Source of the DNA: an uncultured virus (IMG/VR IMGVR_UViG_3300050509_000576)
Taxonomy: Duplodnaviria; Heunggongvirae; Uroviricota; Caudoviricetes
Virus record (IMG/VR): IMGVR_UViG_3300050509_000576
DNA: 20,000 nt
Reading direction: 5' to 3' (one strand)
Below are positions 6,809 through 13,039 of this stretch, in pieces. The notes under the pieces are model-generated. The model had not been told where the DNA came from. It searched no databases and saw nothing but the letters and a program-made list of their open reading frames with translations. The translations under genes and the position numbers were made by a program. Position 1 is the first letter of the stretch; each line of letters begins with the position of its first letter.

Positions 6809-7029
6809 TGCACACCACCCTGACCCTGACCCATCCGTCCGCCGCCTTCCCCGCGCTGCTCCAGCTGCTGACCGCCTGGCACGATAGCCAGCCCCCGGGC
6901 ACCGTGCAGATGCGGATTGCTGCCGATGCTCCGGAGAGCGGGGTGCAGGACATGCGCGAGCTGCTGCAGCGCTTTGTCCCTCATGTCACGACGGTTCCCC
7001 CGCCCCCGGGAGGTGCCGATGGCCCGTAA
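6808..7029 (+). CDS. Hypothetical protein (MHTTLTLTH...)
   Basis: GGAGG RBS and TGATG overlap define the start at 6808 within ORF 6592..7029. Confidence 0.55.
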   Translation: MHTTLTLTHPSAAFPALLQLLTAWHDSQPPGTVQMRIAADAPESGVQDMRELLQRFVPHVTTVPPPPGGADGP

Positions 7030-7185
7030 GACGTCCTGATGACTGTGCCGCTCCTCCCCGAGACGCCGTCCGTGCCGTCGGGCGCATATGTTCAATGGGG
7101 CGAACGCACACCGGCCCCCAATGCGGCGTGGCGTAGCCCCCTGTGGGCGGCCGCTTGGCCAGGGGGAAGGTAAGCATCGCCCCAT

Positions 7186-7620
7186 CAATCGTCTCCTCCA
7201 AGGGGACTGCCTGCCTCGGCTGGCAGGGGAATTGGAGGTTGAGCCGCACAGGCTCAACAGGTGTTCAAGGCTTGCTCCGTCTTTGTGTAGGCTTTGTTCA
7301 CTGTTTCTACTAGGCATATCGCGGTATACTTTCTCTACGTCACGCTGCTTTGAGGCCGACGAGAAGGTGTCGCAGCCGAGACGTGCTCCTGTCACCGGGG
7401 GCACCGGGCAGGCTAAACGACCTTGAGCTACCAGGGACACCGAAACCTCCTTAATCCGCTGCCGTGCATGCGACGGCAGCCGGGGGCGTACTGTGCGTGT
7501 AGCGGATAGGTACCCCAGCCGTGAAGTGGTCAGCTACCCAGAGCATGCCACCACGAGGGCTGGAAATCTGCGCCTCAGGTTGCGGGAAGCCGCTGACCTT
7601 GAGGTAGCGGAGGATGTCAC
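7186..7620 (+). mobile_element. Non-autonomous IS200/IS605-family element, 435 bp, with no tnpA/tnpB
   Basis: Left end: CCAT|CAATC..., GGGA (7203-7206) then hairpin CTGCC/GGCAG (7207-7226). Right end: GAAG (7586-7589), hairpin CCGCT/AGCGG (7590-7610), terminal TCAC (7617-7620). Precise removal restores the host ORF. Confidence 0.8.
7337..7620 (+). ncRNA. Putative structured RNA inside the IS element (omegaRNA-like candidate)
   Basis: TATACT -10 box at 7325-7330, then consecutive stems (ACGTC/GACGT with GCTGC/GCAGC; GTGCTCCTG/CGGGGGCAC; ATCCGCT/AGCGGAT; GCTGCCGT/ACGGCAGC; CCAGCC/GGCTGG) running into the right-end hairpin. Confidence 0.45.
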
Positions 7621-7931
7621 CAATCAGGTAACTGGTGAGCGAGCACGGCTCCTGCCAGATGAGGTGCGCCGTGAACAGCGCCTGGAGCGTCTCGACCCAG
7701 GCCTCGCTCATGCCGGCCCAGAAGAGGAGATTGGGCACCTGGGACGCTTCCGTGGCCATCTCGCCCCGCGTCTCCATAAACGGCGCGAGGACCGTCGGCA
7801 TCTCCGCAAACGTCACGGAATCGTTCGCACGGATATAGGCGAGGAGGGCGGCGGCCGCGGGCGGCAACCCCTCGGCGGAGCGGTACGGCTCATACGGCGG
7901 CCCGGAGGGCGGTGTCTGTGTTCGGCCTCTC

Positions 7932-8156
7932 TTACCCATGGGTCACCTTCCGTGTCTGGCGCAGTGTCTTACGCTGTGTCTTACGCTGATGCCGTATGAG
8001 ATAGGTTTCAAGCGCCTCATGGACGATCTGTGTCGTAGACACAGGTGCTCCGTCGCCCTCGCGTTGTTTTTCGAGCACGCAGATCTGGAGTCTGGTGTAG
8101 AGATCGGTGGGCACCCGTATCGTCAGGCTACGGCTCGGCGCGCGGCGGGGTGCCAC
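7932..8156 (-). CDS. Ribbon-helix-helix (CopG-like) DNA-binding protein
   Basis: SLTIRVPTDLYTRL...STTQIVHEALETYL; GTG start immediately after the upstream stop. Confidence 0.65.
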   Translation of the reverse strand: MAPRRAPSRSLTIRVPTDLYTRLQICVLEKQREGDGAPVSTTQIVHEALETYLIRHQRKTQRKTLRQTRKVTHG

Positions 8157-9416: not shown

Positions 9417-9728
9417 CTACTCCTCCTCGACGCCACCCTGTAACGCCCGACGCTCATGCGGTGTGAGCATCTCACTCAAGAAGCGTAGGCGATCCTCCGG
9501 CGTGACCTGGCGCCAAGAGCGATGGAGGGAGTCGAGCGGGGTCGGGCTCTCTGGCGCTCTTAGGGCCTCGTGGGGCACCTCCTGGGCGCGGCACCTTTCA
9601 CAGCGATTCCCCGGCGTGCCGAAGAAAATACCGCCGCACTCGTAGCAGCGGACGCGCGGCAGGACCTGCGCTGGCACAAACGCCTGCGGCGTCCGGGAGG
9701 TGTGGGCATCATGCCTGCGTGTGGCCAT
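9417..9728 (-). CDS. Zinc-ribbon hypothetical protein
   Basis: CYECG...CERC; start at ATG 9728 after GAAAGGGAA. Confidence 0.6.
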   Translation of the reverse strand: MATRRHDAHTSRTPQAFVPAQVLPRVRCYECGGIFFGTPGNRCERCRAQEVPHEALRAPESPTPLDSLHRSWRQVTPEDRLRFLSEMLTPHERRALQGGVEEE

Positions 9729-12969: not shown

Positions 12970-13039
12970 CCAGGCTTGTGACAGGCGCCTCACCATGAGG
13001 CGGTCGCATTAGGCAGGCACGAGGCCTGCTCACTCTGCG
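12970..13039 (-). ncRNA. Twister-ribozyme-like RNA, circularly permuted (type P5-like), partly degenerate
   Basis: Minus strand CGCA GA GUGA GCAGGC-CUCGU-GCCUGC C UAA UGCG AC CGCCUCA-UGG-UGAGGCG CCUG UCACAAGC CUGG contains the twister core: UAA, P2 GCA/UGC, GA-GUG and L4 UCACAAGC with a CAC/GUG pseudoknot. Confidence 0.7.

Follow-up and report, generated by a model that had tools for sequence, protein, structure and literature searches.

Work on IS608 established a rule by which guide motifs pair with cleavage motifs. One study (10.1101/2023.03.14.532601) describes covariation between end guides and tetranucleotides, and states that palindrome-associated transposable elements (PATEs) often encode omegaRNAs which are used in trans. 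An expressed PATE RNA is in print as VNG_R0052 (PMC4615843), and further literature includes 10.1101/2023.11.20.567912 and PMC13565253. Both the element type and the idea of a guide acting in trans are already published, and the class is therefore not new. Here, we describe a gene-less element in a 20,000-nucleotide stretch of DNA (the window) from an uncultured Caudoviricetes virus (IMG/VR record IMGVR_UViG_3300050509_000576). The window reads as part of a phage genome, with terminase relatives and members of replication initiator, HNH and methylase families. Because its ends are IS200/IS605 ends common to tnpA and tnpB elements, the element is almost certainly a non-autonomous IS200/IS605 element, i.e. 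a PATE (Table 1). Elsewhere in the window, a Twister-P5 ribozyme was detected between small genes (12970-13039, minus strand; 39.6 bits, above the gathering score of 37.6). An open reading frame at 13-975 on the minus strand has no PHROG match; it resembles a RecT/Bet-type annealing protein, and it could supply recombination at short homologies.

Table 1. Features of the element and its surroundings (positions are those of the window).
Feature	Position	Strand	Basis
Interrupted phage gene, 3' part	7005..7185	-	88.8% identity to L007
CCAT target tetranucleotide (TnpA cleavage site / TAM), outside the element	7182..7185	+	precedes the left end in 27/30 loci
Gene-less IS200/IS605 element (PATE), 435 bp	7186..7620	+	absent from the intact allele of L007; both ends parsed
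Left end: DNA guide GGGA 7203-7206; subterminal hairpin 7207-7226 within outer stem 7195-7238; second hairpin 7239-7257	7195..7257	+	DNA fold, z -3.07
Putative -10 box (TATACT); putative start near A7337	7325..7330	+	same position in 16/16 elements, anchors by eye
Module B, conserved 5' RNA hairpin shared with sister cassettes	7344..7376	+	covariation in 8 sequences
Most conserved core; hairpin 7395-7407 then TAAACG, like the 5' hairpin of one TnpB omegaRNA type	7386..7437	+	homologues; model R2
Further module C stems: 7454-7468 with 7492-7507; 7515-7520 with 7558-7563	7438..7563	+	pair probabilities 0.67-0.98
Surplus, degenerate copy of the right-end hairpin; predicted to mask the genuine right end by pairing with it	7567..7585	+	RNA/DNA energy models; X12 and X13 diverge here
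Right end: DNA guide GAAG 7586-7589; hairpin 7590-7610; TCAC 7617-7620	7586..7620	+	end-motif pairing among 22 parsed elements
Would-be guide, right flank	7621..7640	+	identical to the empty allele 3' of CCAT
Interrupted phage gene (phrog_7134, unknown function), 5' part	7621..7939	-	intact in L007; protein relatives

The element is inserted after CCAT into a conserved phage gene, which it truncates after about 105 codons, and its ends carry paired guide and cleavage motifs of the kind seen in Y1 TnpA elements. Eight relatives of this gene were found in the protein collection (one near-identical match and seven more). Alignment to the intact allele of phage L007, which lacks the element, breaks at 7190 and 7618. 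At this empty site CCAT is joined directly to the sequence that follows the element and 40 of 40 bases are identical, which bears out the proposal of an earlier sequence-only reading that a guide starting at 7621 would match the empty allele next to CCAT. An antisense effect of the element RNA on the phrog_7134 gene matters little since the insertion already truncates it. The empty-allele joint was not seen in sequencing run X5, a result that carries no weight, and the nearest virus record (G001) does not include the element region. Elements of this kind often stand directly before an oppositely oriented gene (L008 at 2991-2994, the region of L009 at 2916-2925, and L057) because a start codon plus G reads CCAT on the opposite strand.

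The five bases CAATC are present at both junctions and the element boundary is therefore set by the CCAT/TCAC rule. At its start, the left end copies the right flank over 5 nt in the window (7186-7190) and over 8 nt in L024, whose left end differs at its start from the sister left ends L021 and L036. Such repeats of at least 5 bases, noticed after the fact, occur in two of 22 elements; they are a weak lead for repair scars because 4 of 462 cross pairs also match over at least 5 bases.

A left-end pattern that did not specify CCAT returned 30 loci, several of them redundant and two being the window's own element. CCAT stood just upstream in 27, contig ends cut two, and CCAC was found in one. 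Left-end patterns were used for one metagenome scan and both genome scans, one of these scans being without a match. Over 42 nt, the window's left end shares 95% identity with its counterpart in a tnpB element carried by a Gloeobacter plasmid, and that element likewise follows CCAT. The same left end occurs on the tnpB elements L008, L012, L022, L027 and L029, and TnpB is encoded at four of the 30 loci (L012, with an internal stop, L022, L027 and L029); at L022 this left end also precedes a Y1 tnpA fragment. The TnpB element L027 shares the left-end subtype and the last 14 bases with the window element, so that a TnpB element with such ends, which the sequence-only reading proposed to look for, does exist. 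The right-end hairpin and terminal TCAC noted in that reading were also confirmed. Right-end guide and terminal tetranucleotide covary in 21 of the 22 elements parsed out of 25 (GAAG with TCAC in 15, CAAG with TGAC in six, one discordant; ends were chosen by eye and the three unparsed elements dropped). Three traits of a PATE were found, namely shared subterminal hairpins at both ends, insertion 3' of a fixed tetranucleotide with matching guides, and no protein gene. At L037, where the left end is preceded by CCAC, a frame at 1-258 reads towards the left end and has no Pfam match; we take it to resemble the C-terminus of IsrB.

It is likely that an RNA is made from the plus strand of the element and folded. 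A promoter had been proposed at TATACT: the hexamer is there and all 16 elements compared have a TA..T box in this position (with anchors picked by eye), but a consensus promoter scan of 7000-8100 returned no site, the -35 is poor, the extended -10 is absent and 34 equally good hexamers occur in the window. The claim that the interior holds no credible ORF stood up well, the longest start-to-stop frame wholly within the element being 64 codons (the other five listed have 28-34) and a homologue carrying five single-base indels in 208 nt. A tblastn comparison likewise detected no relic of decayed tnpA or tnpB coding sequence in the interior, with a best E of 0.07 among the matches listed. A likeness of the frame at 7325 to the end of a TnpB zinc finger failed in that search.

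Folding of 7336-7620 was better than that of shuffles on the plus strand (z -2.08, 3/200) and not on the minus strand (z +0.67). This is in line with the structured RNA of consecutive stems described earlier, although the effect is modest; both supposedly single-stranded linkers are present (7407-7421 and 7434-7450), but the first is partly paired in the fold. Rfam/Infernal models, HEARO included, had been suggested as a possible source of a family assignment and gave no significant match within the element. Apparent likenesses to group I intron and HEARO motifs failed in the same search.

The window element belongs to a family of cassettes built from a left end, a -10 box, shuffled RNA modules and a right end. 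Among the other complete elements that have such ends or related ones, most are gene-less, 200-510 bp long, and carry a TA..T box followed by RNA-like cargo. In module B, 7 of 10 pairs change on both sides across eight sister-cassette sequences and 96% of cells are paired; the covariation lies mostly in the closing stem, which the search pattern did not specify, and relatedness can inflate such counts. The window copy is identical to that of L024 at 27 of 27 positions. A pattern search gave 58 loci, mostly chance matches in genes, and five loci (L056, L057, L079, L088 and L105) were retained for alignment A3 because they lie between IS ends. No match to a module B model was found at tnpB loci among 64 sources, its other matches being loci preselected by the loop pattern. 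The module was found in none of 41 genomes, a search with no positive control and of genomes that may not be of the host's phylum.

A second module, A, is absent from the window and shows covariation in 11 of its 15 pairs (8 rows, 7 of them informative); the order of modules A and B is shuffled between cassettes. Module A is a two-helix covarying RNA with a possible pseudoknot, aligned as A5 from L020, L024, L056, L057, L079, L088 and L105 and recognised by eye also in L009, L016, L023, L026, L222 and L227; it had no Rfam match in the cassettes searched. At L016 a transposase-like ORF of another kind comes after it, apparently as the result of a second insertion. No description of either module was found in Rfam or by literature text searches, which cannot find unnamed motifs.

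Several cassettes may share one genome. G509, a complete 54-kb phage, carries three gene-less cassettes of different cargo (L218, L222 and L227) and no TnpB zinc-finger domain, therefore any protein must come in trans; the domain was found in none of five virus records. L227 has no recognisable left end in the stretch examined. In G003, there are seven left-end matches (L044, L047, L050-L054), with at least three types of RNA cargo at different CCAT sites and no TnpB downstream.

Contigs of four runs (X5, X10, X12 and X13) of 14 listed were compared with the interior, X5 being a possible source of the window, X10 a DNA library and X12 and X13 RNA libraries. Diverged homologues were present in three independent soil runs, X10, X12 and X13. 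The core is nearly invariant, with one difference in X10, two in X12 and at least one in X13. By contrast with this core, flanking parts vary: the X13 homologue, which spans 7363-7570, has 31 substitutions (eight of them not itemised) and five single-base gaps, and X12 and X13 depart from the window sequence after 7557 and 7570, respectively, into end-like sequence of their own. Read by hand, changes at 7457, 7462, 7473, 7501 and 7516 are compatible as G-U pairs on the plus strand and the helix of 7463-7468 with 7492-7497 can re-form in X13, but the inner stem 7526-7551 and the pair at 7382 are broken there. Of the homologues and covariation that a structured RNA had been expected to show, the former exist and module B covaries, while changes in module C are only partly compatible. 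The occurrence of homologues in RNA-library contigs may reflect DNA, so transcription is not demonstrated by it. In searches that had no positive control, close interior homologues were absent from viral contigs (three patterns gave none, one and six matches, all seven by chance), from phages and plasmids, and from 201 genomes of the G002 phylum and 301 of the G003 phylum (possibly not the host's phylum).

Beyond module B, we infer that the RNA is fairly probably derived from an omegaRNA. As in omegaRNAs, the right end closes the scaffold, and the adjoining flank matches what follows the TAM at the empty site. We compared the window with two models built from TnpB 3' ends, each of 14 rows. R1, the whole core of one common omegaRNA type, scored 6.8 bits on the window (E 7.4, not significant). 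R2, which comprises the omegaRNA 5' hairpin and the AAACG stretch, scored weakly on 7386-7427 (12.1 bits, E 0.36), where six of six held-out true cases score 11.9-23 and a background match at window position 9637 reaches 17.9 bits, above the element's score. This model was built after the likeness had been noticed, and three of its training rows derive from a genome that a window-derived pattern had turned up. That its match falls on the best-conserved stretch is suggestive. Further, once the end hairpin is taken out, seven of the 17 other gene-less cassettes match TnpB 3' segments at E<=0.01 (40 segments).

The ends may instead be a DNA vehicle only, the cargo being a structured RNA not yet described (modules B and C) that has its own function and is not loaded into TnpB. 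We regard this as rather unlikely for the RNA as a whole, and part of it may belong to an undescribed class. Consistent with such a cargo, modules A and B covary strongly and change order between cassettes, module B was not detected at tnpB loci among 64 sources, the end-like sequence to which module C is joined differs between X12, X13 and the window, and ten of the 17 sister cassettes as well as the window match no TnpB 3' end. In case of the window, the interior minus the end hairpin matched none of the 40 TnpB 3' segments. None of the five TnpB elements with this left end has the window scaffold; the omegaRNA of L027 shares only the right-end hairpin with the window RNA, and the same ends therefore do not identify the TnpB partner. 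Against a cargo unrelated to TnpB stand the seven sister cassettes that do end like omegaRNAs and the weak R2 match at the conserved core, and the 40 segments cover few phyla.

The right end of this copy raises a separate question. For its hairpin, a competing pairing with 7567-7585 is predicted to be the more stable in both RNA (-28.4 versus -17.3 kcal/mol) and DNA (-12.3 versus -7.7 kcal/mol). The lack of a free right-end hairpin is a result of the energy model, and protein binding could reverse the masking. Since this extra end hairpin is predicted to mask the right end, the copy may be impaired for use by TnpA and TnpB, and it is doubtful that its RNA works as a guide. Masking would also fit a decayed deletion remnant of a tnpB element whose folding is inherited and from which nothing is made or used, as would the modest z-score and the lack of a consensus promoter; core deletions are described as generating PATEs in PMC3119063. 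We consider such a remnant improbable, as no coding relic was detected among the tblastn matches listed, the 52-nt core is near-invariant in three independent runs while its surroundings vary, and the covarying module B is absent from tnpB loci among 64 sources. A working RNA on the minus strand, either an IStron-like intron restoring the host gene or an omegaRNA of IscB/IsrB type produced by read-through from that gene, would suit the transcription of the host gene across the element and the IsrB likeness at L037 (a locus with this left end, no Pfam match), but is largely refuted and very improbable, given that this strand folds no better than shuffles, that neither RF02033 (HEARO / IscB omegaRNA) nor a group I intron core on the host-gene strand was found although Rfam detected a group I intron in L023 (620-811, 52.8 bits), that no junction register has U before the 5' site and G at the 3' end, and that the invariant G-U pair of module B is on the plus strand.

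The explanation that we prefer, with moderate confidence, is a PATE which combines leader B, a divergent omegaRNA-class scaffold and a flank guide used by a host TnpB against empty alleles. A TnpA supplied by the host would have moved the element. Its promoter would drive an RNA of ~285 nt that starts with leader hairpin B, continues through module C as a divergent and expanded scaffold of the omegaRNA class and finishes with the right end; reading on into the flank would add a guide directed at the empty allele. A TnpB of the host would load this RNA and cut empty alleles, and recombination after cutting would keep or spread the element, as shown for Geobacillus elements. Guide-only homing between phages is possible, and the pair of filled and empty alleles makes it directly testable. 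A bolder version, to which we give little credence, sees the cassettes not as deletion relics but as a line of RNA genes that encode no protein and travel on transposon ends: covarying leaders (A, B) that can replace one another would be fused to omegaRNA scaffolds of several TnpB clades, borrow whichever TnpB the host offers and home into co-infecting phages without the element, and the short target copies with which the left end begins (5 nt in the window and 8 nt in L024) would be traces left by cutting and repair.

What is new is a family in related soil phages with a CCAT target and RNAs built from covarying modules without an Rfam match. A literature text search found no paper joining TnpB, TAM and CCAT as whole words. 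Should module C prove to be an omegaRNA, a TnpB clade still to be identified would be implied; otherwise, the transposon ends carry a new RNA.

We finally compared the element with known systems. It resembles PATEs (PMC3119063) in having no terminal inverted repeats, in subterminal palindromes shared with IS605-type elements, in being too short for a transposase and in its strain-specific insertion. It differs in that it resides in a bacterial phage, that its interior is a putative promoter and modular RNA with no detectable tnpB relic, and that its junctions carry a repeat of 5 nt, target duplication being reportedly absent in PATEs. As in ISDra2-type TnpB reRNA (10.1101/2025.02.11.637750), the end hairpin doubles as an RNA stem, and there is a weak likeness in the 5' hairpin and AAACG; the reRNA scaffold is 116 nt, with a distal stem that is disordered and tolerant of change, compared with about 235 nt in the window, where core model R1 is not matched. 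With sotRNAs, HgcC (RF00062) and VNG_R0052 (PMC4615843), it has in common an RNA that ends in an IS200/IS605 right end. HgcC matches are weak in the sisters L009 (E 0.0004) and L027, and in the window the match comes from the end hairpin alone (10.9 bits, E 5.9). In contrast to the protein-less, PATE-like ISGst elements (10.1101/2023.03.14.532601), the window scaffold is not recognisable, its cognate TnpB was not found, the target is CCAT and not an AT-rich motif, and there is an extra 5' module. With these ISGst elements it nevertheless shares paired guide and cleavage motifs, a flank-derived guide that matches the donor joint, and a need for TnpA and TnpB in trans.
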